A stretch of 64,000 bases of DNA from an uncultured Planctomycetales bacterium (lineage in GTDB: Bacteria > Omnitrophota > Gorgyraeia > Zapsychrales > JAHFFX01), in the NCBI GenBank assembly GCA_964612665.1, contig CAZTCI010000001.1, forward strand, positions 508,896 through 572,895, read 5' to 3'. This document shows positions 27,001 through 51,000 of this stretch, piece after piece; within the stretch, counting starts at the first letter, position 1; each line of letters starts with the position of its first letter. Made by a program: the position numbers and the translations under genes. The notes under the pieces were generated by a model that was not told the origin of the DNA, did not search any database, and saw nothing but the letters and a program-made list of their open reading frames with translations.

Positions 27001-30000
27001 GATCACCAACGTCCATGGGTTAGGAACTTTTTTAGACAAATGCGCGGACAAATGATCTGAAATGGTTTCTTCCAGCGCACTCTGCCAGATATATCGTTGA
27101 GAACGACCGGCAAGAAGTTCGATTCTTCTGGATGAAGAAACGATATTTATATTAAGAAAATCAACATTCTGTTGCCTGTGGATTTGCTGTGCCGCCAGCT
27201 GGACAACGCTATGTAGGATAAGGCCGGCTAACGCGGGTTGATTGTTCAGTTTCAAAAGACCGACGACAAATCTGCGGGGAAGATAAATGACGGGGCCATT
27301 GTCATTCCATTCCGTCGCAGCGACAGCCACATGACGCCAGTTGTCCGCATAAAGGAATGGTTGGCTCTCATCTTCGCGATCGCGAACCAAGATCAATTGA
27401 CTTCGAAGAAGGATGTCAAACAAATCGCTCGCCGCGACGAAATCAAACAATCCTCCCCGAATTTGATCCCACGGGATATTCATCAACGCACTTAAACTCG
27501 CGTCGAGAATTGAGCGATGCAACTCCATGTGAGTTAATAACGGTTCAACATAACGTTCATTCCTTCGACGAACTTTGTCGATTAGTTCCTGGATTTTCTT
27601 GTACTCTATATTCCATGCCTTCACTAACCTGCCGTTCTCATGATTTGTCATGACACCTGCGGCGGCCATCAGCATGAGGGAAGCCGTCACCGCAATGAGA
27701 CTAAAAGACCAACCACCGCCGAGCTGCTCCCATCCCAACAAAGCCTTCGCTTGATGATCTTTGTGATTAAATCTTTTATCGTCTGAATTAACCAGGGGCG
27801 TAATATCTTGAGCCATGGGCAGCGGCTCGATATGATTTCCGTTCGTGGATTTTTCTCTTGGCTCCCGTAAAAGTGAAGCCTCGTAGCCAATACCTCGATC
27901 TTTTCCATTATTTGGCCATAAACGATATTTCTGCAAGAACGAAGGGTCCTTAAGACTCTTTTTCAAATTTTGAATCATGATTCGACTCTTTATATCGCTT
28001 TTGAGAAATTCATTCCTTAACCTCAGAATGATATTCACAAACTGCTGTTGAGTTACAAGGACTCTTGTTTCTTTAAGCATCTGGTGTCCATAATATTTTA
28101 TGGCCATGCTGATGAGTTGCTTGATATCAGACTTTCCACCGTATGAATTCTCACTATATTCCTCAATAACTTTTCTGATCGCTTCGATCAAACCTGGATC
28201 ACCTTCCACCCGTCGATATTCTTCTTCTGTGATATAAACTGCATTCTCCTCGGGAAGCAGCATGACATCACCATTCGCAAACGGGCCTTCTATTTTTAAA
28301 AGACCGTCCCGCTTGGCTATCACGTGGCCAACTTTATAATAACGGTGTTCGACATATAAAACATCATTCTTAACGGGGTTAAAGCGGCGTCCAGGCATTT
28401 GAAAACGCCACAGAGGATATAAATTCTTTTCCAATTTTGAGATGATCTTAAGACTTATTGGATAGAGCGTATTCTTGCGAGGCAATCTCGCGCCACGGAT
28501 TTTCGCAACGGAAACTTCACATATCTGAACAAGACGCTTATCGGAGATCTCCATTATTTTGGGATTGTCCATAAGGCGATTGAGCGCTTCGCGCGCCTCG
28601 ATGAGTTGTTTAAGCACCGGCCGCATCTTGGCGATCACGTTTTCAGATGGAGTGGCTTTTTGTAGACGATATAGCTTGGCATCACGAGAAACTTTGGAAC
28701 GCTGATTGATCTCTGAATCCGTAATGCCCAGTTGGTTGGCTTGCGTGAGCAGTTGAACCAGTTCTATTCGAAGTTTTTTGAGATCTGGCCTTTGTTCTTT
28801 GAAATATTCCGTCAGGGCCATAAGCAATTTAGAGATAGTCGATGCGTGCGGCAACGTCCTATTTCCGGCTGCAATCATACTGATCGTGGTCTGATCCACC
28901 CCAGATAATTTTGCCAAACTCTCCTGATTTAATCCTTGCTCAAAAGCGTTCGTCATCAAGACGAGTACACTTCTAAATTGTTCCGCCGGAGATCCTGCCA
29001 TAGGCAGTCGATCCAATTTACTTTCAATCGATGCAATCGTATCTCGCCTTAATTGCGCCGGAGCCTCTCCTAATATTTTGCGCAGCGTTTTGTCATCAAT
29101 ACCCAATCTCGCCCGGATGGCCCGTCCCGAATATTGGCCTTCCTTATTAAGTCTCTTGATGTAATTCTGAAGGTCAACGGGAAGAATCACCATCACAGCC
29201 AATCCCGACAGGATTTTTAATACAATTATTATTCCTTTGAGGCCGATCAAAAGCCACGTGGATTCGAGGGTGATCGAGGAGAGTTTCTCCGTGTTTTCGT
29301 TTGAAGATTTTTTCCCAGGTTTGTCTTCATACTGCGCCACTTCTTTTAATTTCGACGCCAAACGATCAATATAGTCCTGAGCCTCGTCGGTGACGACGTA
29401 ACCCTGAGCTTCCAGGACATCCAAAACTTCCAGCACAAAAGCGGCCATCATCAAATAATGAATCAAATTTCTACTTTTCCAAGAAGACCATTCTCGAGGA
29501 GAATTTTCTTCTACATAGATCGGTTGAGGAATCGTTTCAACACGGCCTCCCACTTCTCTCAATTGCGAATGAATATTCTCAATCTTAGGAAGATAATCAA
29601 CATACCGCCACAACACATTTTCTTCTGTCTCGATATCCACCCCTTCGCGGAAATAATTCCAGGCCGTCACGATCATTTTCTGATCATAATCTCGCTTTGA
29701 AACGATTCCTTCCCGTCGAAAAACGTACTCACGATCAATCGTGCCCGAAATCATATGCATATAATACAGATCAATATATCGTCGGCCGCCGTTATTCCAT
29801 GGTTTTAAGTCCAAGTTGAATCGTTGATTGGCCTGGAAAATAACCTCGGGGTTAATCAATGTTCTATACAATAGAAGTTCCGTACCAATGGAATCGATGG
29901 TTCTCGTATCCGTGTCGATGAGTATAATTCGGTCTGTTTCCGGAGATAAAATCCCCTCGTCGTGCCAGTATTTGACAAAAAGGACCGCTTGAAGTGAATC

Positions 30001-33000
30001 TTGCCGAACGGCTTGGTCATTGTGCATTGTCGCCCAAACACTATGCATGCGCTCTTCAGGAAATTCTTCTGTAATTCTGGTGTAAATCTTTGACATTTCA
30101 AAAAGCGGTTCGGCTCCTGCTCGCAAGAACACAATACGCGTGTTCTTCCGGTATTGCTTATTCTCTTCGTGGGATCGAGGATATTCTTTGATACGCATGA
30201 ATACGTGTTGTATGAAATCCATCAATCCCAGTCTGCGCTCGGCGCCATGACCCAAAAATGTCGTCAAATGTTTAGTATCCAAATAGTGTTGATACGCTTT
30301 GGCAAACATTGCTTGATCCCCCGCAGAAAAGATTCGTCCGAGGGATTGAATACTCTGATTACGCGCGCGAACATTATCTTCATGTAATCTGAGTCGATTT
30401 AATCTAACCGAGGCAATGGCCGCAAATCCTGCCAGGATTTTAAAGATCAGCATTACACCCTTGATGCCGATTATGATCCACGCGGCGTCGAGGGTGAGGG
30501 CGGGAAGCTTTCCAACATCAGATGTTGGAAAGGGCGGGTTCAACCTGCGGGGTTGATGTCCGTTGGCATGCTTCTCTTGCGGATGGGTGAACTTTTCCGA
30601 GGAAAACTTCTTTATATCTTGGTCGCTCCACTCTTCTCCAAACACCTTTTTTAAATCCGATTTATTTCCGTTCTTTCCGTTCCTCTCCTTCTTTGCCAAA
30701 TCGTCATAGAATTTTTTCATGATCTCATCTTGCCGACGATCGAACTCCTCGGCGGAGAGAGACCAGTCATCTCGCTCTCGTTTGTATGCTTCCTCCGGTT
30801 TCCGATTCTGATTTAACCAAACGTCCTTAAGAACATCGTAGAGATTACACAACATGCGATTCCCCGCAAATTGCCTTAATCCCTCCCGATTGTCCTTATT
30901 CTTCAATATAATGCGGGCCATTTTAGTCTTCTCGAGATCCTGCTTGAGAAGGTGAACTAGGGCTTCATGGCGTCCGAGGTTTATTTTGGCCTCCCCGAAC
31001 ATGTCTTTCACAATTTGAACAAAAAGCTCAGGACCGATCTCCCTCATCGATAGCCAGGCATGCAAGACGATTTCTACTTTTTCTTCCTCGCTTTGAATAC
31101 GATGATGCCAAATCCAGATTTCATCAGAATTTTTGAGACCGCCAGAGGCATGGGAAGATCGAGAAAGGTCCCCATAGATCACACCGACGACGAAGAAGAC
31201 CACGATCAACATTTGTATCGGCGAGAGAACCGTCGACTCCACTCCCAATCCCAAGGCATTCATGGCCGTTGGTTTCCCGGGCCCGCGGAATGCTGTGAGT
31301 TCATTCAACCTGCGGGGTTGATGCCCGTCGGCAATTTCATTCGAAGACTTGATGTGGCGGAATCCTCGGTCGGAGATGTTCAATGTGAACCCATCCTCAT
31401 CAGAGAAACTACTGTAAAACAAAATCTCCCGGGCCAAATACGTTTCGTTAAACTCGATGACCAGCGCCTCACGCTTTTGGCCCATCTCCAACAGATCGTT
31501 CCACAAGAATGTTCTTGAAAAACGAAGTTCGCCAGCACCGATACGAAACGTAATGATGATGTCATTTCCGATGAGCCGGCCTTTCACAAAATAGATCCCT
31601 TGATCTTCCGTCACAATCCGGATTCTGGAATGTCTCAACAGCGTTGAAATCGGCAATTTGATTACTTCTCTGATATGATAAACTTTCTGGAGGGAATATT
31701 CGGCGTAGAAGGACAGCTCGTCTGCATCTGGAAGATGAAGGATAAAGTCATGAATCGGCGGCAATCCGCAGGCGGAATTGGTGAGCATGGCCATGATCAT
31801 AAAACGGATCAGCGTCGGGCTGCGAGTGAAACCAGCGACCTTAAGCCAGAATAGCCATACGATCATTGCCGTAATCAAAACGGCGAGGAAATATGCTAAG
31901 AAAGCAGCTGATAATTTCTCCTCAGAAGACGTCTTCCACCAGGTATATTTTTCCTTCATCTCATGATAGGAATTCAAAATAAGATTTAACGTTCCCTTCA
32001 CGCTTTGTTCCGTTGTCCCCCGCTCGGTGCTGATGTCTTGAATCGTCCATCCATTTAAGATCAGCGTAATAATCTCGCGCTGCGGCGGCGACATTTGATT
32101 CAATAGGGCCCGACGATGTGGATCCAATGATTGAGAATCGCGGATAATTTCGCCCAGGATTTGTTTCCGTTGAGAAGCACCCGCGCCTTGGAAATGAATG
32201 TTGATGCCTTCATGCAGCGGATATAATTCATCGCACCTTTCTTCCCGTTCAATTTGTTCTCTTAGGGGTTTCAAAGACAATTCGTTCTTAAGATCACGGT
32301 ATCTGAGTAATCCTCGACGGGCGGTGATGATCACCGTAGTCCACTTAATCTGCAATAGTCGGGCCACATCCGCCGGATGATAACCTGCAATGGCAAACGG
32401 AAGAATTTCTCGCTCCTTTTCCTCCAGCTGATCAAAGATCTCTCGATGGTCCAAGAGAAAATCTTGTTTAACCTCTCTGAGAATATTGATGAATTCTCGA
32501 CGGTTGGGAGATTTCAGGAAGAAATTGAATTCCGCATCTCGATCGTTGCGGATAACCATCATGGCCAACATGCCGGGTAAAAGGAGTATGACCAAAAAGT
32601 AAAGGCCCTGTATTTCTATAAAAATGATCTGTGTAAACGCGATCAAGACAAGCACGGACGGGAATACGGCGGAAAGTTTTTCCACCTTCCGATCTTGCGA
32701 TGTGGGGGCCAACTCTTTCTCAACAAGCTCCCCACGATATACCATCCGCTGAACAAGGCCCATCGGATAATTGATTTCTTTTAAGTCACCCTTATAGGCT
32801 TCACGCCGGATAACTTCATTGAGCAGGCGAAGTTTCTTTTTGATCTTTTGGACCTGATCTTTTTCTTGCGCACTTAAACTTTGATGATTAACGTATTTTT
32901 TGTGAAGTGTATAATCGTAAACGCTGAGCGAGATCGTCTGTTGTTCTTCTCCAACAATAACGACATTACCTTGATCCCCGGCTGGTTCGATGAAGAATTG

Positions 33001-36000
33001 ATACACAATTCCCTCAGCATAGAGATAATATTGGATTTGTGCATGGCTGTTATTAAAAATGCGGATATCATCAACCGAAAGATAATGCGGCCCATCAGGA
33101 TGATTGTGCAGGTCCAAATAAACGAGGGGATAATCTGGATTTAGTTCCGGACCGACGGAATCCTTATCGCCTTTGACGATACTGTAAAGGTCCCCTTCCA
33201 AGGATTGATGGGAAACTTCAAAAGGTAAATATCCAGAGGCGACGGTGTAAAAACGATCAATCGCGCGCCAGAACTCCGGCGTCCCGACGGCCGCGGCAAA
33301 TGGTCGAGCGCTGTAGCGTGTTCCTTCCTTCGCACTAATAATATCCTGCTTTATCTGATCGAGCGTCATGACTGGCCGACGCTGGATCCGGGAGATAAAC
33401 TTCCGACGGATGAATTCCTGGGCTTCCAGTTCATGGACGGCCATACCGATTATCGCGACCGCCGTCAGGCCGAGCAGGCTAAGCCAATCGGTATAGGCGG
33501 AAAGTTTTTCCACCTTCCCAACCCCGGAGGTTGGGGAGGATAATAATTTTTGGCTAAGATCTGCAGCCACATCCAAGTTTTCCAACACTTTCGTCGCATC
33601 TTTAGAACTTTTAATAAAGACAACCGCCTGAGAAACCGCCGCCGATATTGTTTCTATTTCGCCGATCATCGGAAAACTTCTCTTCCAAATAGCAAACTGG
33701 TGATTCCACGCAGCCAAACGCAGTTTGATGGCCAGATACCTCTTATCGGCCCATAACTCCTTCACTTGATCTCGGGCATGGACCATCGACGGGATTCGGT
33801 CCAAGGACAGGAGCAATCTTTCCTGATTTTCCCGTCGTTGTGCTTCCTGAAGTTCCCGTAATTCTTTTCTAATTTGCTGTAGTTCTTTTAAACTATGGAA
33901 CAATTGCTCAGTGGACGGGCCTTTAAGGACCGTCCGCGACATAGCTGCTGCCATTGCCCCCATCCCAGCAGAGAGCAATATCTTTCCGACGGGGATTCCA
34001 AACCATAACGCGGTCCCCCCATCTACACCTACGAGGTAAAGATGGATCCCCACTCCATACAACGCCAGTGCAATCATGACGGATGGAAATATGGCGAAAA
34101 GTTTTTCCACCTTCCCAACCCCGGGGGTTGGGGAGGATCTGAGGATCACCGCCAGCATTTCAATTAGTCCAACCAATCCCTTAAACACAATCCAAATCCA
34201 CACGGCTTCGATCGTGACGGCGGAGACGTTCTCGATGGGATTGTGATCGAATTCTTCTAGCGCATCGATTTTTCCGTATAAATATTGGGCCAAATGGCGG
34301 ATATCTTTTCGATAGTCGTGCGTCTTAACCAAATCCCAGAGGTTCAATTGTTCCCATTGATCGCCGGCAGCTTCGAGAGCTGCTTGGATTATCTTTAACC
34401 ATTCCTTCGCATAGAATTCTCGATGACGGAAATTGGACGCCACAATCCAGTGCAGTAATTCTTCTTCGGAAGATGTCTTCAACATCTCAATCGCGGCCCG
34501 GCGTTTGGCTGGCGAAGTGACCACCAAATCATTCATCCGCAAATGCTCGTTGAGAATGTGCTTCAGGCGCCGAGTCCTGGCAGAATTCGCCAAGCTGGTT
34601 TTATTTGTGAAGTCATCAAGAGAATTGAACGGATTGTTTAGCTTGCGAACCATCACCACAAATTCGGTCTGCGTCATTGTAAATCCACTCAAAAGAAAAT
34701 CCACCTCATCAGCGTAATTAAGGAAATATAGAATTTGTTTTTTGGTGTTTTTCGGGTGCTTCTGCAATTCTCGACGATGTTGCTCCGCATTTTCTTTCTT
34801 CTCTTTTCGTCTTTCGTTCTCTTTCTCTAAATCCGCCCGTGCCCTTTCACGAGGATTCTGAAATAGAATCTCTCGACGGTTTTCGGACGTTCGTTCCCAC
34901 GACATCGCAAAGACAAAGATATATGCCAGCAACATCCACGGACTGAACAGATAAGTACGAACTCCGGAATGATGGACGATTTGTTTCTGTGGAGTTTCTT
35001 CTTTAGTTGACAAGCCAACTTTCAGGGCTTGGGCGCGGCTGGCGGAGAGGTAAATCAACCGTTGAACAAACATGCCCGCGATCATCAGCACCGTAAAGAC
35101 ACTCATTCCCGTCGATAAATCGATCGTCACGGCGCGGTGTTTTTCGATATCAGAAGAACGACTTGGTGTTTTATCTTGTGCATTCAACCTGCGGGGTTGA
35201 ATGGACATCCTGTTCCCCTTCACACCTCCGAGGCGCGAAAGAGCATTATTTCTTAGCTTTTTACGAATACTTATAATTTTTAACACTGAACGAATATGCC
35301 ATTCTCTTAGCCCCAACCGCTCTTCCCGGATTTCTAATCTATCCCCAGGATATTTTTCAAAATCTGCAGTCACAATTTCGATAAGCCGTTCCCTTTTTTC
35401 TAGCTTTTCTCTTAAACGCACTCCCGCGGCTTTCTGCTTTAAGAACGTTAAATCATAATCCGGCCATATTTTGCTAATAATGTAATTCGACACTTGTTCA
35501 ATGTATTGATGCGATGATCCCATCTGTTCGACAATGATGCTTGATGATTGATCCAAAGCTATTTTGCGGACTAACACTTCTTTTTGCGGGAGCGTTAGTC
35601 CATACCTATCTCCTATATCGTTAAGGGTCCTTACAAGTCCTTCTTTAGTGATGGCATAGCCACTACTCTCCATAATGTCGCGAGCAAAACTTACTCTATT
35701 ACCATGCTCCATCGCTGTCTCCTGAGACGATAGAGAAGATCGGTATTCCTGGATCCCTTTTTGGCGATCTCGGTTTCGCGCATATGTATTTCGTTCGCCT
35801 CGAATTTTTAAATTAATTCCATTAACGACATATGTCAATAAGCCTACGCCATTGCGCCGATCAAATTTGATCACACTGCTGCGAATAGTTTTAATGAAGT
35901 CATCTGTTCTTTCCTTTAGGAAGGATCTATTCCATCTCTGTTTAACTAAGGGCATTTCTGTCAGACCGGCGATGAGGACTTCCATCGCCAAACCATCTTT

Positions 36001-39000
36001 CTTATCTTGAATAAGGTCAATTAAACGGCTCTGTTGCTCACGGCTTAAATATCCTCTGGAATGACGTGGCATGCCCAAGATCGTATTGACAGCGGCTTCA
36101 TCTCTTTGCTGAGGAGCCCAAATAATTTTAAGTTTAGACTCTTTAATAACCGGCACAGGAGGATTCAGCCCGTACCATTTCTTCATTTCATAAAGAATTT
36201 CTACTGAGCTTTTTCCTTTTAGATCGTGATTTTTTGCCCAGTTCAGCAGAAGCCCCTCTAAACATTTTCCTCCAAACCCTGGAATACCTGTATGAATAAT
36301 ATCGCCCACTTTTAAATCTACTATCTTCCCTGCACGGCGATGATTGGCTAGATGTTGAAGGATCGCCCATTGCAACCGCTCTTCAAGTTTGTCCCAGGAG
36401 AATTTCCTCGCCCGTCGGAATTGATCCAATACCGTTTCCAATTCTTCAAGGGTTACTGGTTTTTCTTCTGCCATCGTCATAAGAACAGCAGATGCGCAGA
36501 GGACTGCTATCCACGCTTCCGCACCTACGAGGTGCTGATGGGTAACCATGGCGACGAAAGCGGCGGAAATGATGATAAAGCGGAAGACTCCGTCGAGGAA
36601 ATCATTCAGTCGGCTGGGTTGAACAAATACAATTCGACGCAAAATGGAATTCACATTGTCTTGGCCGACATACGCAAGCGCCGCCGCAATTCCTACCAGA
36701 ACAAAAATCCATAAGGATGGACCAACGGCCATCAGTTTTATCTCTCGATCCCAAAACTGACTTGGCCCACACCGGCGGACAACAAATTTCTTTTCCAAAT
36801 CCTCTTTGACCGTCGTCACATCTTCTTGGACGATCGCGTCCGCCACACGTAAAGAAAATCCCATTTGCAGGGCCTGACGGCCGGGCATGGATGGGCTATA
36901 TCTCAAGCGAAGCCCCTGAATCAACGCGCGATAGGGCGCTTCCTGTCCCCGGAGAAACTTAAGGAAGGCAAACTGTTTGATTTCTTTGGTGGATACGGAG
37001 GTTTCAATATTATTTCTAAGATACGCTAAAAATTCTTTGTAATAACTGACCCAGTGCTCAAGGATTCTTTCCAGCCCCAACTCATTTAATTGTTTGTTCA
37101 AACGATTTGTGTTCCCAAAGACCAAATCTGTCGGTTTAAATTTATCAAATGTATCGGAGGTAATAGGACTCAATAAACAGCGCTCATTTAACGTTGATAC
37201 ACTGAGCTCATGCTTTTCGCCCCCGATTCTGACCCACCGCCCCAATCCCCGTCGGGCCAGGGCAATGAGATATTCGGGTTCGATATCAAATTGATCTTTC
37301 CCTTGATAATAAACGTGAATGTCCAGGTCCTTGATCATGGACCACAATGGGATTTGATTTTCGCTAAAAAGATAGGTCGAGGAGCCGGTGACCGTGATGA
37401 TCGGAGCCTCCACAATGGATAACGTAGCGACTTGCTTTAGAAGTTCGATTAAATCGACCGGCGGTAAAGCTGGATTGTCTGGCTGAACAATAAACTGGCG
37501 CTCAGGACGATAGTAGGAAATGTGTTCATCTTGGTCCACGATCAAAACAGGCCAATGCACTGTTTGGACCGCCGCCAGTAATATCAGCGCGTAGACCGCC
37601 TCGTTCAAACCGATCAGATCTCCGTGGGCCAAAAGACCGGATAAAGCCGCGAGGATGGCGATAGGGCGGAAGAGTTGTGCGATCAACCTGCGGGAGTGAA
37701 CAGACTTGATAAAGCGGAAAATTCCGTCGAGGAATAACATCACCCTCTCCGACGGCGGCGAAGTCTTGAGAAATTCGTAAAACGCGCGGAGGTTTTCAAG
37801 GATGACGCGGGATTTGGAGATTAGAACAGCGGCCATCAAAACAATAATGAGAATTTCCGCGAGGTGAAACACATTATTCGACGAAAAATTTGATTTTCTC
37901 GTCGGTCTTATCCGTGCAGTCGAAAGGAAATCGATTCGATGGGCGTTCAACGTCGCGGCATCTAATAATTCAAACCCTGGGAATGTTTGATCGACGATAT
38001 GTTTAATCAAATCCGCCAACTGATCCGCAGGGATTTTGATTAGATATCCTGGAATTCGGTGCATCTGCTGAGGACTAATTTCCCTCATCTCTTCTGCAGT
38101 CAAAAATTGAACCGCGGCCATCGATACAACCCGGCCTTCTAATCTGTTGACAGTCCATTTTCGCGACATTATACTTTGAATCGAAAAGGAGATAGATTGA
38201 TGACTTCTCTTCAAGATGCTATGAAAATCATTAAACCGCTTCAAAACCGTTTCAAGAAAAGCCATAAGTCCAGAAGAAAAACGAAGATTGCCGACGATCT
38301 TTTGGGTGCGTTCAAAGGTGCGACCGAAGGTAAATCTTCCAGTCAATGTGTTCGAGAATTGAGAAATTCTTCTTATGGTAAGTTTAAATAACCCTTCCTT
38401 GCTCTTGGACTCCGATGTCCTTGTCAGCTGGTTGACGCTCGAAGAAGATATTCTTACCCATAAAAAGCTCTGGGAAGCTCCCCACAAAATAATGACAATG
38501 GTTGAGGAAAATTCTTCTCTCGGTTGTTCAACGATTATCAATCTTATGGAAATCAGGTTTGTGTTGCGTGCTAAGAAGAAATTCAGTGAGCATAAGATTA
38601 CATCTTCTCTTAATAAACTCTCCGAGATTCTGAAGCTATTCATTCCAGATGAAATCAACCTATTAAAGGCGAATGAACTCCAGTCCAAATATCTTTCATT
38701 ATCGCCAACCGACGCTATCCTTCTGTCTGTGGCCACAACCCTAGACAATGTTGTCCTAATCACCCGCGATCGAGAATTATTGAAAGCTGCCTCAAAAATT
38801 GTCTCCGCATCAACTCCTGAAGAATTTCTGGCGAAACGCTGATCTCTTCTGTTCCAATAAAAATTCCCCACCAGCATTGCAATTAGCCCAACCACTCCCT
38901 TAAACACAATCCAAATAAAGCGGAAAATTCCGTCGAGGAATAACATCATCATCTTCGACGGCGGTGAGGTTTTAAGAAGTTCGTAGAACGCGCGGAGGTT

Positions 39001-42000
39001 TTCGAGGATGACGCGGGATTTGGATAGCAGAACAGCGGCAACCAAAATAATGATTAGAATTTCCGCGAAGTTAAAGGAGTTATTCGTTGGAGAATTCGAT
39101 TTACCCGTCGATCTCGTGGCGAGAGCTCTGCTGTCCTGAGATCTTCTTTCTGTGGTGACGAAAGTTCCTACCCTTCTTAAAATTTTGATAACTCTATCCC
39201 TTCCCTGAAGGTTATTAGAACTCTGTCGAGATTGGGGTTGTTCAACGATCGGCAAAGTGACGAAAAAGCTGGCGCCCTGGCCCAACTCGCTCTCCACATC
39301 AATCTCTCCATTGTGCGCCGTAATAATGCTTTTCACAATGTAAAGTCCCTGGCCGGTCCCGTCTTTTCCTTTCGTCGTGAAATATGGCTCGAAGATTTTA
39401 GAGACCAGCTCGGGCGCGATCCCGGGGCCATTGTCTTTCACCTCGAATTGCACGAGGGGCGCATTGTCGATTGGCGTGACGATCAACTCAATCTTTCCGT
39501 CTGGTATCTGCGCTAAGGTATACACCGCATTCTTTAGGAGATTGATAAACGCATGCGTCATCTGAATTTGTTCGACATCGATTCTAATCCCGGCGGCAGC
39601 GGAAAAATCAATCTGAAGTTGCTGTGGATCGAAGAGAGCGAAGATCTCTTCAAAATGTCCTCTAAGATTAGTCAAGAATTCCTCGACGGAAATGACTTTC
39701 TTCTTACCTTTCCCGGAATAACTGAGATAAAAATCAATGATTATTTTAAGCCGGTGGGTAACGCTGTGGAGGGTTTTGAGGACTTCACGCTTGGCTTTAG
39801 GCTCAACGATACCTTGATCGATATTTTTGTCTTGCGGATGCTGGCGGAAATCTTTGACGAGCTGCTTCCAGGCGCGATGAAACTTTTTCAGTTCAGGTAA
39901 ATCATCGAGAAGGATTTGCAACGCCAACATAATTAACCTTTCGCGCTGTTCTTGTGTAAACGGTTGGGCATAATTTTCAAGCACCTGTTGTAATGCCGGA
40001 TTGAATAACCCACCTATTGGCCTTTTCTCTCTTAAAGATAAGGTTGTTCTGTCATGCTCGGGGAGAAAAGGCCTAATACTAGACTTTTGCAATGCAAAAG
40101 TCAGTAATAACTCCGCTCGCTGTTCTCCTGTAAGCAGCTCAGCATATTTTTCAAGCATCGCCCGTTTTAATTCTGGGTTTGATAATGACTGAATATCGAC
40201 ATAAGGTTGATCAGATGCGGCATGGTTGCGAAGAATCTTCAAATCATTAATTTTCTCGAGAAGATTTAAATCCATAATATTCTCACTCAAAGATTGCATA
40301 GCGGATTTGAATGGTTCCGGCAAAATATCGGCATTACCGTTTGCCGGATCAAAGAATAAAGTAATCACGGTCAAATCATTGCCGATTTCATGCAGGAAGA
40401 CCGGCCCCAAATCAGCGATGATCCCCTGCCAATAATCTTCTTTTGGTATCCGCATTACCATAACGACAACCATCGATAGTCCCAGCAGCCAATTGAACGG
40501 CATAATGTATACGGCGTTTCTCTCGGTTGGGAGCTTCATAAATACATATTCCCTTCTGGCCACTGTCTGAATTTCAAGACCAAGCGGCTTTCGGTTTAAC
40601 GTTTTGAGCATTTGGGTGATAAAGTTTATCCGCCGCAAAACTGATGTGATCGGCATGCTGCTGCCATCACCCAACGTCGTCCCTGGTTTTTCTTCCAGCA
40701 GCATCTCCATGGTCTGCCCAATAACTGTCAAGGCCCCGGACAGATTTATGACGACGGGCCCGTCTGTAATAGAATTTCTAAACGCCGTCCCCATCACATT
40801 GCTTTTCCGCACTAAAGCGATCAAATCCTTGGCCTTTGGTGTCGTATCATTGCCAAACACAGGGTCGGATTCTGCCTCCTGCTTGACGTTTAGCATTGCT
40901 TCCAAAATCAATCTTGCGGACTCGCGTGCCCGTGTCGGATCTCCTAACGCTTCGCGTTGGCCATTAACAAATTTAACGAACTTAACCAGCTCCGTGCGCA
41001 GAGCCTTAATCCATTGCGGCCATTCTAGGTAATAAAATAATTGTTCCAGGACTGCCATAATAAGGAGCGTGCGTTCTCCGACGGGTTGGATTGGATTTCT
41101 AGATATTTGTTCTTCTTTCTGTTCAATGTCTAGAATCAAATGCCAGACTGGCTCTACAAATGCTTTCCTCTCAAGCAAGCCCCTTGTATATTTGAAGAAA
41201 TCATTCTGAGATTCATGATGACGCAATACTCGACGGGCAGCCAAACGGGCCATGGGATATTTCATGGAGCCGATTAAATCAGTCAACGTAAGATAATTTT
41301 TTACAAAGCTGCGCAATCCTGGCTCTTCAATCAATCCTTTAAACTCAATCAGCTCGGAAATAAAACGGAAATAGAAAACAAACCGTTCTCCGCCGGCCTT
41401 ATAAAGGATCCGTTTCCTTCCCGTGGCGGAAATAGGCCTATCATTTAAAACTTCGATCAGCCAAGCAGCGATCAAAAGTCTTAATGCCTCCATGTCCTCA
41501 TCCTCAACCGGCCCACTTAAAATCCACGCGCGTTTTTCGTCGGTGGAAAGGGCCAGGAGATTATCGAGACCAGTATACTGGCCGCGCACCGCCATCAAAA
41601 ATACCGGAGCGCTCAGCAACATCAAAGACATTCCCATCCATAAAACGGTTTTGATGGCGAGTATAACCAACATCAATCCGCCCACGGCGCCGACCAAGGC
41701 GATGGAATGCAATTTCTCCTCGAGCTGCGCGATTTTATTTTCTATTCCATTTGTCTTTTCAGATTCTTGGTCTTTCTTCCCGTTTCCATTCAATTCAGTG
41801 GAATACGCTGTCAGAGTGAATAATTCTTTTAAGTCCTCTTCCCATTGCTTATGAAAAGGAAGGCTCTCTGCATATTCCTGGAAGAGACCTGCGCGCAGCT
41901 GACGCCACACCATATGGTCGAGCAAGACCTGACCATTGATGACAAATGCCTGCGCAAAGTGTCTTAATTCCTCGACGTAGGCCGGATATTTCTGTGAGAT

Positions 42001-45000
42001 CTTTTGTAAAGAAGACAATTCCTCGGATAGAGAATCTTTCTTAAGCAAAGCATCCACGTATTGTTCAATCTGTTGGCTTTTAGCATAGTCATGGTCTTGC
42101 GATAAACGGATACGTTCTTCAATACGATCCGTGGCTGTTTCAAAAGCAATGATCCAATCGGCATCAGAACCGGAGAATTCCGAGACATAGCTTGATACCC
42201 TGGACTTTAATAAAAGCCTGTGCGTCGTCCCGGCCTCACCGTTACGGGCGATACGGGCCATGATTTGTCGCATATCACGTTTGGAAAAAAGAACGTTGTA
42301 AAGAACAGCCACAACGCCGGAGGCAACATTGGTCAAAATATTCACCCCTCGGCCTCCCATGGGACTGGTAATAAGAATCGTAATCTGTAAGCGGCCTTTC
42401 TGGTTAATAACATAACCGGCCTTTTCAAATTGACCGGCTTCTTCCCTGCGCTTTTCAGGATTTTGATCGATCCCTAAAACAGTCTCAATCTTGATATCAT
42501 TGTTGGGCCGGCCTCTTTCCAAGATGGCGTTTAATAGTTCCTTGACATGATGGGCCGAAGCGATATCTTCCGTCGCGATAAAAACCGGCCTTCCTGACAA
42601 TAAAGCATTCATAACAATTTCGATTAAGCTTTGGTCCATCTCTTCCACGGTCTCATATCCGATGGAGGAATGATCAACCCGGATGGATTTGATATCGGAG
42701 GGTTGAACATACACTTGCATGTTCAATCTTTTCTTTAAATGCTGTTCAATCGTCGGACTCATCTCTGAACCACTGACCGCGGCATAGCCATGTCTATACA
42801 ACTTTAAAAGGGAGTGATACGTCAAGGCCGCCAAAAGCCGGCGCGGATTCTTTTCATTGTCGATACCGGAACGCGCTTCTATCATACGTTGTACCTCGGG
42901 AGAATAAACACGCAAAATGTCCGGGCGTTTACTATCGTCGGGAATAGGCAATACATTTTCACGTTTAGCATCTAAACAAAAATCATGATCCTCTTTAAGG
43001 TTCCAGCCAATCACCGCAAAGTCCGCCAGCTGACGCAAATGCGCATCAGAGATTTCATCTAATTCCCGACGATTTCTAAGAAATTCCATAATCTTCCGCG
43101 GGTCACGCCAAACCACTTGTCTTCCCTGATCGGAAGAAATAATCTCTTCGGGATTCGTAGCCCAATCTTTCAACAAAAAGAAGACGTCCTTATCAAAACG
43201 ATGCCACGCTGTATAGGCTGCGATAATTCTCTTCACTAATTCTTTATCCTTACCGTTGACGATGATGTCGATCGACAGAGTATTCAAGACGGAGAAGATA
43301 TCCCAAAGATAATAATCCGCCTCATCCAATAAAGCCCGACGATCAATGGTCAATGGTTGTTCTAAACTTTTTCTGGTCGAAATTTCTCGCGCCAGGGCTG
43401 TTAAAGAAATATATCGGATCTGTGCTTTGCCGGCTTCAGCCCAGAGAGAGGAACCAAAAAATCTAGTGAACCTTTTTGACTGGCCCGGAATAAGTAGTGT
43501 ACGGGACCCTTCGGTGATGCAGCTTACGGAATGCCCCAAAGAAGCCAAAATCCCGGCCTGACTGTTAAAGCCGTCTTGGGCCAAATGATCTGTCGTGGTG
43601 ACGATATCCGTTGATACACCCATTTTCTCCAGAGCATCGGCCGCCATCGACAAGGCCATGGTTTTTCCGGCGCTGGTATCAAACTTGACAAAATATCCCC
43701 GCGATCCGTCTTCGGTCCTCGGTTGCATCAAGAGTTCAGCAGTTTTAAGTTGTGCGGGGCGGCGTTGATACTTAATCATAATATTCTTATCAGCCATCCT
43801 TCGACGCGCAATGACCTCAAATTCCTCTAATGATTCCCTAATTACGTCGGGAAAATATTCGCTCAAGGATAAAGGCAGATCGGTCCACGCCACGCCATTT
43901 TGTATCGATGTTTTAATAATTTCTTTTTGTTCACTGAATACGTTCAGTTGAGGGGTGGGAGTCTCGTCGATCTCCCCAATGATATTCGCGGGCGTAGATA
44001 AAGATTCCATCTGAAGTCTTTCTGCCTCCTCTTCCAACGGCGAAACTTTTTCCGGACGCTGGAACTCAAACGACATCTCGGGTTCAGGAGGCTGAAAAGC
44101 AATTCCAAAATAATGGGCGAGATGATGGACTGACTTAAAGAATCTTTCCATTGATATCTCAAATCTTCCTTGTTCATAATTCTTCACTGACGACTGGCTT
44201 AATTGTAGAATTTCGGCAAATTGAGTTTGAGATAAGTCCAGCTCCTTACGAAGATGGGTTAAATTCAAGAGATATTTTTTCAGTAAAGCATTCTGTTGGC
44301 TGTTTGGAGAGGATTTCGCTTCTTGTTGAACATCATTGATGAATTCTTTCACTTCCGTCGGGACCTCACTGGAAACATTGTCCATTAAGAAATCTATAAC
44401 CTTCTTCATTGACTTTGCGCTAAGTTTCCATGCCTTGGCAGAACTTGCGTGATCTACAATATATTTTTGCCCTCCCATCGACGCGATCATTGTCTCGACA
44501 GAGTATCTCTGCTTAAAACGATTTAGTAAATGCTTAATCGGCTCGCTCAATCTCTTAAAAATTTCGCGTCGTTCTTCTCTTGATGCACGCAAAGCTTGTG
44601 CATACAAAAGCTGTATCTGCTGCTTCCACTGCTTAATGTCTCGAGACCACTCACCAATGGGCTGAACATCCTCATTCTGCCCACCGAAAGTAGAGATGAT
44701 GATAGATTCATCGATGAGCTGAACATTCTCATTCTGCTCAAAAGCGATAGGAATCTCGTCCGCCTCTTGTAATGAAATCAAGCTAGAGATTGGCTTTTCT
44801 TCTTCAATGAACTGAGTATCCTCATTCTGCTTACCGATCAAACTTTCATCGACCTCAGGCAAAGTTAATTCAAAAGTCGTTTCTTCATCGCTTTCTGGAG
44901 TAAGGATGATGATAGATTCATCGATGAACTGAACATTCTCGTTCTGCTCAAAAGCGATAGGAATCTCGCCCATCTCCCCAATTCCATTCGTGGGCGGAGA

Positions 45001-48000
45001 TAAAGATTCCATCTGAGATATTTCCGCCTCCTCTTCCAACGGCGAGACTTTTCCCGGAAACTGGAACTCAAACTTCATCTCGGGCTCAGAAGGCTGAAAA
45101 GCAATTCCAAAATAATGGGCGAGATGATGGACTGATTGAAGAAATCTTTCCATTGGTATCCTAGATCTTCCCAGTTCATATTCCGACACTGACCACCGGC
45201 TTAATTTTAGAATTTCGGCAAATTGGGTTTGAGACAAGCCCAGCTTCTTACGAATGCGGGTTAAATCCGAAAAATATTTTTTCAGTAAAGCATTCTGTTG
45301 GCTGTTTGGAGAGGATTTCCCTTCTTGTTGAACATCATTGATGAATTCTTTCACTTCCCTTGGAACCTCACTGGAAACATTGTCCATTAAGAAATTGATG
45401 ACCTTCTCCATTGACTTTGCGCTAAGTGTCCCCGCATCGGCAGAACTTGCGCGATCTACGATATATTTTGTTACTCCCATCAACGCCATTTTCTCGACAG
45501 AGAATTCTTGCTTAAAGCGATCCAGTAAATGCTTAATGGGCTTGCTCAATCTCTTGCGTTGTTCTTCTCTCGACGCACGCAAAGCTTGGACATACAAAAG
45601 CTGCATCTGATGCTTCCACTCGTTAATGTCTTGAGACCACTCACCCATGGGCTGAACATCCTCTTCTTCTTTCCGTAGAATTTCTTCCGTCCGTTGGGAC
45701 TCAAACTTCGTTGCGGGCTCAGAAATCTGAAAAGAAATTATTGAAAACTTTTGAAAATAATTCTCCACAATTCTTTCTAATAACGGTGTTTCCTGCATCC
45801 TCCAAGGACGAATTGTTTTGCCTTTGTCCAAATCATTCTCATCGCGATGAGAAAACTTCGCCATCCCCAACATCACGCCCGCGAATCCCAGAAGATTAAT
45901 GAACGCGATGAAATCCATTGCATAAAAATGCGCCGTTCCGATCATGGCCAGGATGGATGCGATGATCTTTACAAAAATTCCGTTGATCATTGTAAACAGC
46001 ACCATCGCTCCCATAACGACCGACCAAACCACCCAACCACCGGCCACGTTGAGAAATACGATAGAAGACAATGTGCTTATCCCCGATGGGACCAATTCAA
46101 GTTGCTCTGGATTGGTTTGAGCAATATAAGATCTAAATATATATAGTTTCTCAAAGTAACTTTTATTTATGTCGGAAACGAGATAATCTAGACGATGATG
46201 ACTAATTCCCTTTAATCCTTCCAACCGTAACATCGCATTAACAAAATTCATGGCTAATGAATTATTGCCTTTGCGGAATAAAAACCATTGGCTCGATTCA
46301 TCGTGCCCAAAAGTGCCTAAATAGAAACCAAAAATGCGTTCAATACGACTATTGATATCCTTCTGTTGCTGACCGTCCTTGACCCATTCCCCCAGATGAT
46401 TCATCATCTTGAGAATCCGTCGATGAATATCCTCTTTGGATCTCGCTCTCAGTTCTCCTGCGACATTCAAGGCATAATCCTCACTTGGATAAAAGCGTTT
46501 TCCGTCCTTGCCTAACAGAAGAATGATATTAAAATTCTTAAGCCAAATTAAGAAATCTTGGGTCGTGGTTATACGGTCCGAGACGAAATTGAATAACAAA
46601 CGCAAAATCTCTCCTCGAACTTCGTGGGAATTAATCCAATAATTCCTCTGCTCATCCATCGACGGCCATATTGCTAAAGTCGAAGGATCCGGGTTTCTGA
46701 TCATTTCTTCTTTAGGTAGCTGTAAGGCATTTTCCCAATTCCAAGTCGGCATGGCCCGTTTGAACATCGCCAGTTCTTTTGTCGCCACATCAACAGAAAC
46801 ATCCCGGTCTTGCTGAAGAACCGGATCAAAAATCACAACAGTTGGATTTTCCGAAGTCCCCTTCACTGCCATCCTCACAGCACCCGCCATAACGATCGAT
46901 GCGATCCCCAGATAACCAATCATCGAATGCCCAAGCCAGGCAGCCGTCAATACCTCCAAAAGCCCGGTAATTCCGACGATAAGAACCCAGTGATACCACT
47001 TTGCTTGAGCCAATAGCTCATGGAAAAATTCCTTTGTGTCTTGAACGATGACCTTCCAACTCAGCCTGGTCCTCCATGCCCGTTTCCACTCCATGACCAA
47101 GATGAGGAATTGAATCAAAATAATCAGGCCTGTTACGATTGTGATGACAAGATCGGCCGTCGGTGAAAGTTCCTGTTGGGGCACCACATAGGCCGCCTCG
47201 GTCAAGCTTGGCAGAATCCCCTGCAAAAACAAAACGCCGGCAAGCACCAACAACAGCGCAATAGCCACGAATACGAAATCAAAAATTCCTGCTACCGTTA
47301 CCAGATCTCCAAATCTCTCAGAAAACTTCGAAGATAAAATCCGTGCATTCCAGCCAAACGGAGAAACGAGGCCTTCATCCCCTAGGTGGATTTCCGGTAA
47401 ACGTCTCAAATCCAAAATCAAATGATCCTGGCCAGCCACTTGGCGTTCTTTTATTTGGTAAATTCCTCTGAAAAAGTCATTGTTCCGTAAGAGAAGATAA
47501 TCAAATTGGGCGGCTAATGTTTTAAGGAAATTGTTTTCTGGTTTGAAGAAGTCCCGCGCTCGACGGTACATTCTTTGTTTGGCCTGCGTTTTGTTCAGTC
47601 CTTCATGTTTTTGATAATAGGCGCGCACGGCCTCGTGGTTATATCCGGCCATATGATAGACGCCGAGCTTAACGATCCTTTCGTTGAAATAAAGCTCAAG
47701 CGATACGAGACTTGACTCTTTAGATGATCCGAATAGATCAATCGAGACAAGATTTAAATTTTCATTAACCTCAATCTGTTGAACACCGTCCCAATCGTGA
47801 GTTAATTCCAAAACCCATTGCTTGAAGGATTCTGATAATTGATCATCATTAACAAATCGCATCGATGCCAGCGTCGAAGAATTTTGGTCCATCATTCCCG
47901 CGGTAACAAAAATCATCGCCCACAACACCCCGATTCCACCTACGAGGTGGAACGTGGTCCAAACGGCGATTAGGAAGGAAGGTATAACGGTGAAGCGGAA

Positions 48001-51000
48001 TAATTGATCGAACAGCGGCGCCGAAATCTTCGCCGGGACTTGGGTACGTTTGGCGGTATTTATAATCAACACAATAATGACAACCGCCAGCGCCAACATG
48101 GTAACAGCAAGAAATTTCTTATTTGTTGATTCAGGATTGCTTTTTTGGACCGATGGTAAGGATGTCCACGGCATTAAGACTCCATCGACTGAGAATCGCG
48201 CTGCCAAGGCTTCCGGCGACACGACGTAATTTTGCGGGAGAAATATATCCGCCAGAAAGTTCGGGTCTTTTTGACTTCGACCTTCTGCAGTTTCTACTCT
48301 GATCAGTAAAGAAAAGACATAAACCTGAAGAGGTATGACATTTATATCTGTCTTTGCGTCTTTCAAGACGGCTCCGATATGATGGAAACTAACAATCTTA
48401 TAAATTGTTTCATCATCAGAAAAAGCAGCCGTATCGTGGAGAACACCCGCCAACCATTCTCCATAACCGATACGCTTTTGAAGGTCCATGAGATGCTCGG
48501 ACCGGATGCCTCCAGCTTTCTCATATTTAATATCTTTGATATACCCTGCCCCTTCCATTCGCATAATTATAGCGGCCATCACTTTAATAAAGTCGCCAAA
48601 TAAAGTATGCGCCAAATCCTCCGACGGAATATCAGATACATTTCGAACACCTTTCTGAGCGTAATGTTCCAGTATGCTAAAAAAGGCCTTACGACCTTCT
48701 CTCAATGAGCGACCGAGATAAGGAAATTGAGTTAAATAATCGGCACCCGCCAGTTCCTTGACCAACATGCCAAGAAGAATCGTCTTTAAAATCTTGCTTT
48801 CTTCGCTCGAATCCTTTGTATAACGAATTAAAACAGGAATAATCCTCGGATTAATTAGAAAATCAAATTCAAGATATCCTTCACTGTTGATTGCGAATCC
48901 TTGATCTGTCATCTGGGGAACAATCGCGATGGGTGATTTGGAATCTCTGGGAAGAAAATCAAACTTACCGGTCATTCGCTTTAGGATTTCAGCCCAGCGC
49001 CGTTCGCGCTCATCGGAAGAATGAGCCCATTGAGCGGCTGTTGTCTGGAAAAATTGTCTAATAACCCGTTTAATTTCTTCGGGAGAATCAGGTAAAGATT
49101 CCTTTTCCTTGCGGGAAACAGCAGGAACGGAATTCGATGGTGCGGCAAATATGAGCGTTGATGTAAAGAGGAAATGAACGGCCGTCAGAAGAATCAAGAT
49201 CTTCTTAGAAATCGGCGGCGGTGAATTCTTCTGACGTTCAAAATAGCGTCGAAACTCGCTTAGACTCATCAATCCGCCGGCGAATCTTCTCCCAATAAAT
49301 ATAAGCATTACAACAACCACGCCCAGAATCGCATACCCATCTACACCCCGGAGGTGTAGATGGGTAACAGGATTTTTCTCTGACTCAAAATCACTTTCAG
49401 CAAAAGCACCTTCCAAAAGTGCGCCGACACGTTTCAGCCAAACATCAAAGTCAATCGCTTCATGCTGTGCCAACCACATAATGGCCTGCTCGAGCACTTT
49501 CACATGCCGAGGAAGTGCTTTTTGTTTCCAGGCCGGTAACGCGTTATAGGCCATGACATCCACTTGGACGCGGGCCGTTGTCCAATTTTCCTGTATGAGC
49601 AATGCGCGTACACTGCGCAAGACGTCTGCGCAATTTTCTATACCAATCGCATCAGTGAGAAATATGTCGATGTGCGTTGCATTCTCTTCTTGGGCTTCTA
49701 CCTTGGCCCATACATGAACAGCCGAAAGGTCGCGGTATTCAGCGACGACGGAATTCACCAGATCAATCAACGCGCTGCGGTCGTCGCGGTGCATGGTCAA
49801 TGCAATGTCCTGATTTTCCAAAACATCTTTGAGATGAAGCAGGAAGCTTACAACTTTATACGTGCCGGCCTGCGCAGCGAGTTCGATGCCTCTGGAGACA
49901 ATTTCCATGCGGACAACTGGATTGCGAAATTCAACAGCTGTCAGACCTAAAAGATCGTTGAGCGCAACAACGCTCGGTGATCTGTGAATCTCGTCGGATA
50001 ATTGATTCATAACAGTCAAGACACGATCCATTTCTTCTGTTTGAGCTTCGATAGCCGCTGACAAACCGTTAAGTATGTATAAAATCCAACGGAATTCTGG
50101 ATTATATTGCTTAGTCATCGCTGATACTATTGCCTTCGCCTGTCGAAGCGGCGCTCGAGCCAGATCTATTTGATCATTTGAATAGTGACTCCAGGCCAAG
50201 TACACGTAAGCAGCCACTTTTTGCGGTTCTAAAATATTTAATGATGTGATCGACGTCCAGCGTCTCACAGCTTCATCATATTCTTTTTGTTCAAAACTAA
50301 TTCTAGCCTGAGCGATTGCGGTCAAAGACAACACGCGGCCCTTTATGCCCAAATCGGAATACTGCTGGCTCCATGCTTTCAGAAGCCTGATTCTCTCGAC
50401 GGCAGATTCGAATTTCTGTTCCGTAATATCTATGATGATTCTGTAATAATTGGCCAGAATGTCCAACTCGATATAGCTAAAGTGGGGATGAAACTTCTGG
50501 GTCAGCATTGGCTGATAATGTGTCACATACCGATTGTTGATAGCGAGCGCCTGCACAAACGCTTGATTAGCTTCTACATAATGTTGCTGATCAAAATGAA
50601 TCATGCCTTTAAACAACGTAAACCATGCTTGTTCCAAGGAATCATCAGGGAATTTTTTGATCGCTTGATCGGCGGCCTGCAAAGCGGCTTCAAATTCTTC
50701 AAAAAGGGCCAAATGTAAGACCTTTCCAGTCAACTGCACAGACATGTCATCATCTTTTTCTGTCCTTTGTACCAAAACGCTCTGTTCCTGACGTGACAAC
50801 CATATCTCGACGGCATTTTGCACTTTCGCGACATCCAGGTTTTTCACTCTCGTCGCTTTCGAAAGAACAGCGCGTACCGTCGCTTCGTTTTGAATGCCAG
50901 CGACCAATGTTCTTAACTCCTGATCACTCGGCTGACCGCTTGGCAGATTCGGCAAAACATTCCGCAAGGCTCGACGCAGAGACGCATAATCTGTTTTGGG

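Follow-up and report, generated by a model that had tools for sequence, protein, structure and literature searches.

Background

Repetitive extragenic palindromic (REP) sequences are short hairpins that can fold in single strands and that flank the genes of Y1 transposases (IS200-like, HUH) resembling the REP-associated tyrosine transposases (RAYTs), their presumed mobilisers. The ends of IS200/IS605 elements are represented by two different subterminal hairpins, which bracket the transposase as one mobile unit. Giant bacterial genes, which comprise tens of thousands of codons and encode proteins that cross the membrane many times, were discovered only recently, and how they originate and are expressed is not yet understood. 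Here we describe a family of hairpins in a stretch of 64,000 nt (contig CAZTCI010000001.1, positions 508,896 to 572,895; hereafter the window, numbered from its first letter) from an uncultured bacterium assigned by GTDB to the Omnitrophota, and argue that these hairpins rather probably belong to the REP class, as palindromic repeats at the DNA level that are part of the reading frame of a giant membrane-protein gene.

REPs are usually located directly downstream of open reading frames (ORFs), between co-directional genes (PMC3733652), and both intragenic translated REPs and REP dimers have already been documented (PMC3733652; also PMC3184786). The Rickettsia palindromic elements are another group of in-frame, translated palindromic repeats in protein genes (PMC3733652, PMC3184786), with a length of about 105–146 bp (PMC3184786). 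As for the host gene, the closest described counterparts are the "Archaeovorin" giant genes of Omnitrophota, which encode numerous transmembrane (TM) regions and a divergent SecA DEAD domain (bioRxiv 10.1101/2023.11.21.568195); the words hairpin, palindrome and inverted repeat are absent from that preprint and from a 2026 preprint on Omnitrophota genomes.

Results and Discussion

The hairpin family and its counterparts next to Y1 transposases

A single stop-free frame on the minus strand fills the window (1..63999; at least 21,333 codons, open at both ends), and this giant ORF, the only stop-free frame across the window, hosts all hairpins discussed below. Its product exhibits about 73 hydrophobic, TM-like segments according to the hydropathy analysis. 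A preliminary description of the window had listed nine hairpins with an ACC-N5-GGT core, all of which are present where it placed them; three further ones, 30508–30532, 35213–35245 and 18215–18237 (the last outside its range), were missing from its list. The copies (10–14 in 64 kb, all intragenic, the window holding no intergenic DNA) share the signature of a 5-nt loop closed by AC[CT]...GGT, with A as the last loop base, and freely varying, covarying outer stems. The stems comprise 5–14 bp, the loop is reduced to 3 nt where its outer bases pair, and pairing is intact in 84% of the pair cells over 14 copies, as in the short (about 20–40 nt) imperfect palindromes known as REPs.

The exact 18-mer TTCAACCTGCGGGGTTGA from the hairpins that encode the peptide QPRRL occurs only at the level of chance in 185,579 genomes (7 loci, compared to about 17 expected), and the 27-nt palindrome encoding SSPT has no match in the metagenome collection. 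The 18-mer was found ten times on eight contigs of the metagenome Ga0210057 (31% G+C), where all copies correspond to an invariant 20-mer, TTCAACCCCGCAGGTTGAAA, dispersed in intergenic DNA with unrelated flanks; the QPRRLN hairpin of the window is thus identical over 19–20 nt to a dispersed repeat. At one of these loci (L009, 11321–12076) two inverted copies of the 20-mer enclose a 221-aa ORF, at a distance of 31 nt on its upstream and of 17 nt on its downstream side. The ORF exhibits a HUH-like motif, PTHYHILV, and a tyrosine motif, SRYIHLN, and matches the Pfam family Y1_Tnp (IS200-like) with 27.7 bits, compared to the cut-off of 23. Judged from the sequence, this layout is the arrangement of a REP-associated tyrosine transposase. 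The L009 protein has 110 homologues, of which the three with a named host belong to Patescibacteria.

Eleven loci of this Y1_Tnp clade, with proteins of 215–230 aa (L009, L021, L022, L024, L027 and L030–L035), were compared. At 10 of the 11 loci the gene is preceded and, in inverted orientation, followed by a hairpin that has a 5-nt loop and AC[CT]-NNNNA-GGT as its core; at L034 such a hairpin is found only downstream. The outer stems of these hairpins differ, yet remain complementary (CAACC/GGTTG, AAACC/GGTTT, CCACC/GGTGG, CGCCACT/GGTGGCG in L031, TTCCACC/GGTGGAA, and others); two complete examples are CCATTACCCACC/GGTGGGTAATGG in L024 and TACCTTCCACC/GGTGGAAGGTA in L033, the latter containing TTCCACC/GGTGGAA. 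In the alignment of 25 such hairpins the positions A12, C13 and A19 do not vary and G20, G21 and T22 hardly do; 9 of the 11 pairs vary on both sides, with a covariation that none of 500 shuffles matched. Thirteen of the 25 hairpins have C-G as the closing pair 14–20, read on the transposase-sense strand, and 11 have T-G; the T-G pairs suggest a hairpin formed in single-stranded DNA of one particular strand. No GTAG/CGTC tag is conserved in the transposase-flanking set or in the window copies, and the untagged AC[CT]-NNNNA-GGT hairpins may represent an undescribed REP class tied to this Y1 clade.

A covariance model (R1), built from the 25 hairpins that flank or lie near Y1_Tnp genes and from no window sequence at all, was then used for an unfiltered scan of the window. 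Its top matches coincide with the sites of the preliminary description and add three more; ten sites score 16–31 bits (E-values from 6e-7 to 0.04), and weaker matches start at 34016, 19422, 36512 and 37675. In 84 kb of unrelated control loci the sole match with E<0.1, apart from the 18-mer sites by which the loci had been selected, is the partner hairpin in a doublet of locus L001 (see below). In the orientation preferred by R1 the loops of the window copies read YCGNA at 12–14 of the 14 sites. The R1 scores, the clean control and the identity over 19–20 nt together show that the window hairpins share their signature with the inverted hairpins flanking Y1 genes, a trait of REPs linked to such transposases.

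Locus L001, one of the seven genome matches of the 18-mer, from a groundwater metagenome-assembled genome labelled Elusimicrobia (44% G+C), carries the same 19-mer within a doublet (1416–1460) of the form TTCAACC-ccgca-GGTTGAA, gt, TCCAACC-tacgg-GGTTGCA, in which the partner is inverted and matches at 15 of 17 positions. An NHL-repeat protein contains the doublet, in frame, in a linker of unusual length; the first hairpin is read as STPQVEV, in a phase unlike that of the QPRRL copies of the window. From its sequence it looks like an in-frame insertion of the REPIN (REP doublet) type.

Protein-preserving shuffles

The window was compared with 500 synonymous shuffles in which protein and codon usage are unchanged. 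Eleven ACC-N5-GGT sites are present, of which 8 extend to stems of at least 5 bp and 7 to stems of at least 6 bp, whereas 0.59 and 0.24 are expected, and no shuffle reached the observed counts. On recoding, each of the 14 sites has a negative z-score, most markedly 49334 (z = -5.4, 0 of 1000 recodings), followed by the matches at 35213 (-3.4), 34107 (-3.1) and 47927 (-3.0). Since the counts were reached in 0 of 500 shuffles and z is negative at 14 sites, recodings that preserve the protein do not yield equal hairpins. This bears out the earlier claim that peptide conservation alone is insufficient, as does the occurrence of the core in both orientations and several phases; the hairpins are not a by-product of the encoded peptides.

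For the window as a whole the excess of hairpins is modest (14 stems of at least 8 bp, compared to 7.3 +/- 2.7 expected; one stem of at least 13 bp, compared to none in 200 shuffles), and the ACC-N5-GGT families account for the entire excess of stems of at least 8 bp. A general template-switch bias (quasi-palindrome correction) was therefore rejected, as only 9 such stems remain without the family members, against 7.3 expected. Several other identities were discarded as well. The ACC-N5-GGT sequence is not depleted, as restriction-site avoidance would require (11 observed, 5.6 expected). None of the hairpins is among the rho-independent terminator-like sites, which are not enriched (17, compared to 21.4 +/- 4.5), and promoter-like sites are neither enriched nor coincident with hairpins. 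DNA-inversion (shufflon) sites were ruled out because the plus strand lacks long ORFs. No Rfam 15 family reaches its gathering score in the window, and only tRNAs do so in the REP-bearing loci.

Phases, orientations and homology of the copies

The ACC-N5-GGT core had been described as decoded in three codon phases, and this is confirmed, with two copies in phase 0, five in phase 1 and three in phase 2; its unrelated peptide products include QPRRL, PTSGVG, HLxG and SxPQV. The 15-nt core CAACC-CCG[CG]A-GGTTG is found in either orientation, with several phases represented (QPRRL, S[AT]PQV, PTSGVG). Because the plus-strand core of the PTSGVG hairpin at 33513, CAACC-CCGGA-GGTTG, matches the minus-strand QPRRL core, CAACC-CCGCA-GGTTG, at 14 of 15 positions, the two families represent one element in opposite orientations.

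At the protein level, the motif [SF]PT[SP][GD]VGK occurs at aa 9955, 10154 and 11156, in loosely paralogous junction modules; at a fourth paralogous junction (aa 10430, APTSQDRKVEKL) the hairpin is gone while the peptide KVEKL is kept. The motif [TI]H[LQ][HY]L[RV]G(VDG) occurs at aa 4879, 9986, 9155 and 5350, and the motif (G)HQPRRLN three times. Compared with 33513, hairpin 30508 has both bases replaced in two stem pairs, C-G having become A-T in one and T-A in the other, and a mismatch restored to a pair. The division into three loop families proposed earlier must be revised, as it cuts across homology: by its peptide (THLHLRGVDG) and codons 49334 groups with 34019, 36521 and 47934 and not with 33513 and 34110. 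Likewise, orientation calls based on the loop alone are unreliable, as 49334 and 34019 are peptide paralogues, yet R1 orients them oppositely.

Individual hairpins

The hairpins had been introduced as families of perfect ones, with 34019 listed as imperfect; the word is too strong for three of the nine, as 33513 and 34110 (given as 11-bp stems) pair at 10 of 11 positions (7 perfect bp, a C-A mismatch and 3 further bp) and 34019 is imperfect. The stem of 49334 is perfect (14 bp), that of 35181 has 9 bp, and those of 30540 and 31305 have 6 bp each. The longest hairpin, 49334..49366 (+), has the sequence TACCCATCTACACC-ccgga-GGTGTAGATGGGTA, i.e. a perfect 14-bp stem with a 5-nt loop, encodes (V)THLHLRGVDGY where the TM segment aa 4885–4903 begins, and is matched by R1 with 28.3 bits (E 4.7e-6). 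Its imperfect paralogue 34019..34045 (−), CCATCTTTACC-tcgta-GGTGTAGATGG, retains 9 Watson-Crick pairs, 1 G-U pair and 1 mismatch and encodes IHLYLVGVDG (R1 match 34016, 12.5 bits, E 0.5; z = -2.3). Hairpin 47934..47952 (−), in the mRNA sense TTCCACC-tcgta-GGTGGAA, can be drawn with 7 bp and a 5-nt loop or with 8 bp and a 3-nt loop, encodes FHLVGGI within a TM region (R1 match 47927–59, 18.9 bits, E 0.005), and has a stem identical to that of the transposase-flanking REP of L033. Hairpin 36521..36535 (−), GCACC-tcgta-GGTGC, with 5–6 bp, encodes QHLVGA between two TM segments and is a weak copy of the T-H-x-H-L-x-G motif, with an R1 match (36512) of just 10.4 bits (E 2.4).

The best R1 match of the window (33510–42, 31 bits, E 6e-7) is hairpin 33513..33539 (+), CCTTCCCAACC-ccgga-GGTTGGGGAGG, which encodes SSPTSGVGKV 12 residues ahead of the TM segment at aa 10173. 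Hairpin 34110..34136 (+), CCTTCCCAACC-ccggg-GGTTGGGGAGG, encodes SSPTPGVGKV in a loop between two TM segments (R1 match 34107–39, 22.2 bits, E 4e-4). Another paralogue of 33513, the one with two compensatory pair changes, is 30508..30532 (−), a perfect 11-bp hairpin, CTTTCCAACAT-ctg-ATGTTGGAAAG, which encodes FPTSDVGK 7 residues ahead of the TM segment at aa 11168 (R1 match 30504–36, 18.1 bits, E 0.008). It forms a doublet with 30540..30556 (−), TCAACC-ccgca-GGTTGA, of 6 bp (R1 16.1 bits), whose sequence and peptide, (G)HQPRRLN, recur in 31305..31321 (−), 20 residues ahead of the TM segment at aa 10920 (R1 16.1 bits, E 0.04); the last two lie in an exact 18–20-mer found three times in the window. 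The third QPRRL hairpin, 35181..35203 (−), CATTCAACC-ccgca-GGTTGAATG, forms 9 bp and is translated as SIQPRRLNA (R1 match 35176–208, 30 bits, E 1.4e-6) and is identical over 19 nt to the REP flanking the L009 transposase. It is paired in tandem, at a distance of 5 nt, with 35213..35245 (−), an imperfect hairpin with the core GCC-tcgga-GGT, encoding ALSRLGGVKGN (R1 18.5 bits, E 0.006).

Hairpin 18215..18237 (−), ACCTCAAC(T)-tccga-(T)GTTGAGGT, encodes TSTSDVEV 21 residues ahead of the TM segment at aa 15283 (R1 match 18210–42, 20.4 bits, E 0.0015). Two weak calls complete the set: 19431..19445 (−), CGGCC-ccgca-GGTTG, probably a decayed copy, is read as SAPQVDV 18 residues ahead of a TM segment, in the same phase as STPQVEV of L001 (R1 match 19422, 10.5 bits, E 2.2), and 37684..37698 (−), CACTC-ccgca-GGTTG, probably a decayed half-site, is read as HSRRLI (R1 match 37675, 9.2 bits, E 5.7) and lies about 10 nt past the end of a 200-nt paralogous block.

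Position relative to membrane segments

The placement at TM junctions noticed in the preliminary description was substantiated with hydrophobic segments called at a hydrophobicity threshold of 1.6: 13 of the 14 sites lie inside the start of such a segment or 0–32 residues N-terminal of one, compared to about 20% of random positions, and the three sites found by R1 alone share this juxtamembrane position. The association is one-sided: the nearest hydrophobic segment is on the C-terminal side at 12 of the 14 sites, among them all those that come after a long soluble region. By locus, six hairpin clusters lie between such a region and the first helix behind it, and no cluster is found past a last helix; five clusters (47934, 36521, 34110/34019, 18215 and 37684) are located in short inter-helix loops or inside a helix. 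The tolerance of juxtamembrane linkers to insertion may cover part of the association with TM segments, not its polarity.

Origin of the hairpins

A conserved core with free stems, found in two orientations and in three phases with unrelated peptides, argues for repeats of the REP class, as does the excess over shuffles combined with the finding that this element also resides between genes and, elsewhere, in a soluble protein that is unrelated. Such elements would have entered the ORF by transposase-mediated insertion or by capture from spacer DNA; duplication of junction modules and their short-patch gene conversion would then have increased the copy number locally. The copies would have survived only where 5–11 added stop-free residues are tolerated, here just N-terminal of a membrane helix.

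Several observations weigh against this origin. The window, which is all ORF, contains no Y1_Tnp domain; the named members of the transposase clade are Patescibacteria, yet the architecture of the giant gene resembles that of Omnitrophota; and searches of 5.8e9 proteins with 581 and 4,900 residues of the junction region as queries revealed no relatives of the giant protein, only matches to histidine-kinase domains. There is some circularity in the R1 match of the QPRRL family, whose 18-mer had led to the transposase clade (the matches of 33513, 34110, 49334, 47934, 18215, 35213 and 30508 are independent of the 18-mer). The one-sided association with TM segments is not predicted by simple insertion. 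Furthermore, 10 of the 14 sites are clustered at 30.5–37.7 kb within the paralogous junction modules, independent insertions may number only about 4–8, and frozen codons are also found in non-palindromic motifs of the same modules, namely WIWIVFKG (46 nt), FLDGxFRF (28 nt) and KVEKLSA. Given these frozen codons, the region 30.5–39 kb appears as a mosaic of 20–46-nt islands with 93–100% nucleotide identity amid otherwise unrelated sequence (34152–34197/38871–38916 for WIWIVFKG, 36573/37707/38915 for FLDGxFRF and 32668/33496/34093 for KVEKLSA). With so many copies clustered in such modules, the share of local duplication or gene conversion in their origin was probably as large as that of insertion.

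Alternative explanations

Could the hairpins instead be selected mRNA structures, perhaps co-opted REPs, which slow the ribosome or stabilise or process the giant transcript shortly before each helix is made, to let membrane targeting or insertion keep up? The position of 13 of the 14 sites at or shortly upstream of a hydrophobic segment, with none past the last helix, is what one might expect, and the sense-strand folds beat the synonymous recodings at every site. In 19431 and 34019 the mRNA-strand stem is maintained through G-U pairs, and the compensatory changes between 30508 and 33513 and the covariation over 14 copies point in the same direction, although the latter is partly built in, the sites having been picked as hairpins. 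However, a hairpin is present at only about 11 of the approximately 73 hydrophobic segments, the stem length varies from 5 to 14 bp, both orientations occur, and the mismatch of 33513 and 34110 is C-A on the mRNA strand. Moreover, the paralogous junction that lacks the hairpin still encodes KVEKL, and hairpins of this class are also found outside genes, next to transposases, and in an NHL protein that is soluble, so that we consider selection for mRNA structure unlikely. Another reading, that the hairpins are a chance outcome of conserved peptides with complementary codons (Pro/Gly, Thr/Val, His/Val), copied by duplication, can draw on the fact that the amino acids fix part of the stem (P-T-x-x-V-G gives four of six pairs free) and that copies within a family are paralogues; it is very improbable in view of the counts never reached by synonymous shuffles, the single nucleotide core common to three unrelated peptide families, the recognition by an external model trained on transposase-flanking hairpins, and the identity to a REP over 19–20 nt.

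Two further explanations relate the hairpins to the assembly of the gene. They might be fossil intergenic REPs, now read through at the fused boundaries of genes with N-terminal membrane anchors, a history that would agree with the usual location of REPs in spacers between co-directional genes (PMC3733652) and with the six clusters that precede a first helix while none follows a last one. The intervals between hairpins are also gene-sized (about 250–750 aa) and harbour domains of the cytoplasmic type (Sigma70_r4_2, HTH_3, HATPase_c). Against it stand the five clusters within short inter-helix loops or a helix, the distance of 0–7 residues to the helix, which is too short for a former spacer and a start codon, and the behaviour of promoter- and terminator-like sites mentioned above; we regard this history as quite unlikely. 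Alternatively, the hairpins could be recombination hot spots, as cruciforms or single strands perhaps cut by Y1, that drive short-patch exchange and the shuffling of junction modules. Identity islands do end at the hairpin edges 33541/34138, 30539/31304 and 34115, and the half-site at 37698 is close to the end of its paralogous block, but these are just 4–5 cases, in which each coincidence is unremarkable (about 20–30% by chance); large tandem duplications (43958–45663 and 37709/38915) have no hairpin at their ends, and no long plus-strand ORF exists that would permit inversions. Such hot spots are therefore improbable in our opinion.

Recombination sites and translational structures had both been suggested in the preliminary description, and both ideas are compatible with co-opted REPs: hairpins are indeed found at the edges of short high-identity islands and upstream of TM segments, as the two might predict. 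Perhaps the REPs are then more than passengers, either as read-through marks of dozens of fused membrane-anchored genes or as pre-helix signals co-opted for translation or membrane insertion of a message of more than 60 kb? We offer this only tentatively and think it rather unlikely; if true, it would provide a sequence-level handle on how a giant gene is built or expressed.

The host gene and other features of the window

The Pfam analysis of the giant ORF identified a SecA_DEAD domain (PF07517; 28.6 bits, cut-off 24.6) and scattered matches to HATPase_c, several HTH_3, Sigma70_r4_2, GerE, DAO, transketolase, methyltransferase, TPR and Response_reg. Domains of types usual in separate cytoplasmic proteins are thus strung between the hydrophobic segments. 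The combination of many TM regions with a divergent SecA DEAD domain in one giant ORF is the architecture of the Archaeovorin type. A tandem duplication at 43958–45663 (period of 1002 nt, 716 nt at 86% identity) carries HTH_3 domains, and 210-nt repeats are nested in it (44695–44758 with 44905–44968). The sole long open stretch outside the giant frame is antisense to it (325 codons, 20191–21165, plus strand); it lies in the most G+C-rich part of the window (50.6%), close to a DAO/NAD-binding match (about 20300–20490). The GC skew of the plus strand is negative in all 2-kb bins, so the coding (minus) strand is uniformly G-rich, consistent with a location of the giant gene on the leading strand.

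A second hairpin family, distinct from the ACC-N5-GGT class, is represented by 9417–9470 and 40065–40102, neither of which is near a TM segment; both contain GAAAAGGCCTAATAnTnGACTTTTG followed by its complement CAAAAGTC, with a loop of 20 nt at one site and 3 nt at the other. It was pointed out by a 14-mer common to the window and locus L008 (GAAAAGGCCTAATA), a match which was itself judged to be due to chance. A perfect 18-nt palindrome without a spacer, TTCTCATCGCGATGAGAA, is located at 45836–45853.

Comparison with known systems

An analogy to Rickettsia palindromic elements had been proposed before, and in kind it is valid, as the window palindromes are likewise in frame and translated; nearer relatives are the REP hairpins that flank IS200-like Y1 (RAYT-like) transposases. 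The Rickettsia elements are longer and form genus-specific families, whereas the window elements, with 15–33 nt, fall outside their size range, are read in multiple phases and have an identifiable counterpart next to transposases. With the ends of IS200/IS605 the window hairpins would share, by analogy, the nature of single-stranded DNA hairpins of Y1 HUH transposases in which G-T pairs are tolerated on one strand; unlike those ends, the two copies that flank a transposase gene here repeat each other in inverted orientation, solo copies are dispersed in addition, and the window lacks a transposase. The giant gene itself resembles the Archaeovorin-type genes in its very long ORF, numerous TM regions, divergent SecA DEAD domain, HATPase_c and TPR.

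The likeness is closest to the REP/REPIN-RAYT systems ("REPtrons"). Like their repeats, the window elements are imperfect palindromes of 17–33 nt with covarying stems, occur repeatedly and in either orientation, in some cases as close doublets (30508+30540, 35181+35213 and that of L001), and exhibit a signature equal to that of the inverted hairpins flanking Y1_Tnp genes. In contrast to the GTAG/CGTC super-families of REPs (Di Nocera et al. 2013), the class found here is untagged, and its conserved part is the loop-proximal AC[CT]-NNNNA-GGT. Also unlike the REP/REPIN-RAYT systems, a single gene holds at least 10 copies, all those of the window being confined to its ORF, and they strongly favour the N-terminal side of membrane helices. 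Translated in-frame REPs are already known, and it is this polarised placement at TM segments that remains unexplained; the bias may reveal module boundaries, recombination sites or translational signals. If the hairpins are REP-class repeats, the odd nucleotide pattern of the giant gene is accounted for without a new mechanism, and one giant bacterial gene would be seen to carry a dozen translated palindromes of the REP class.

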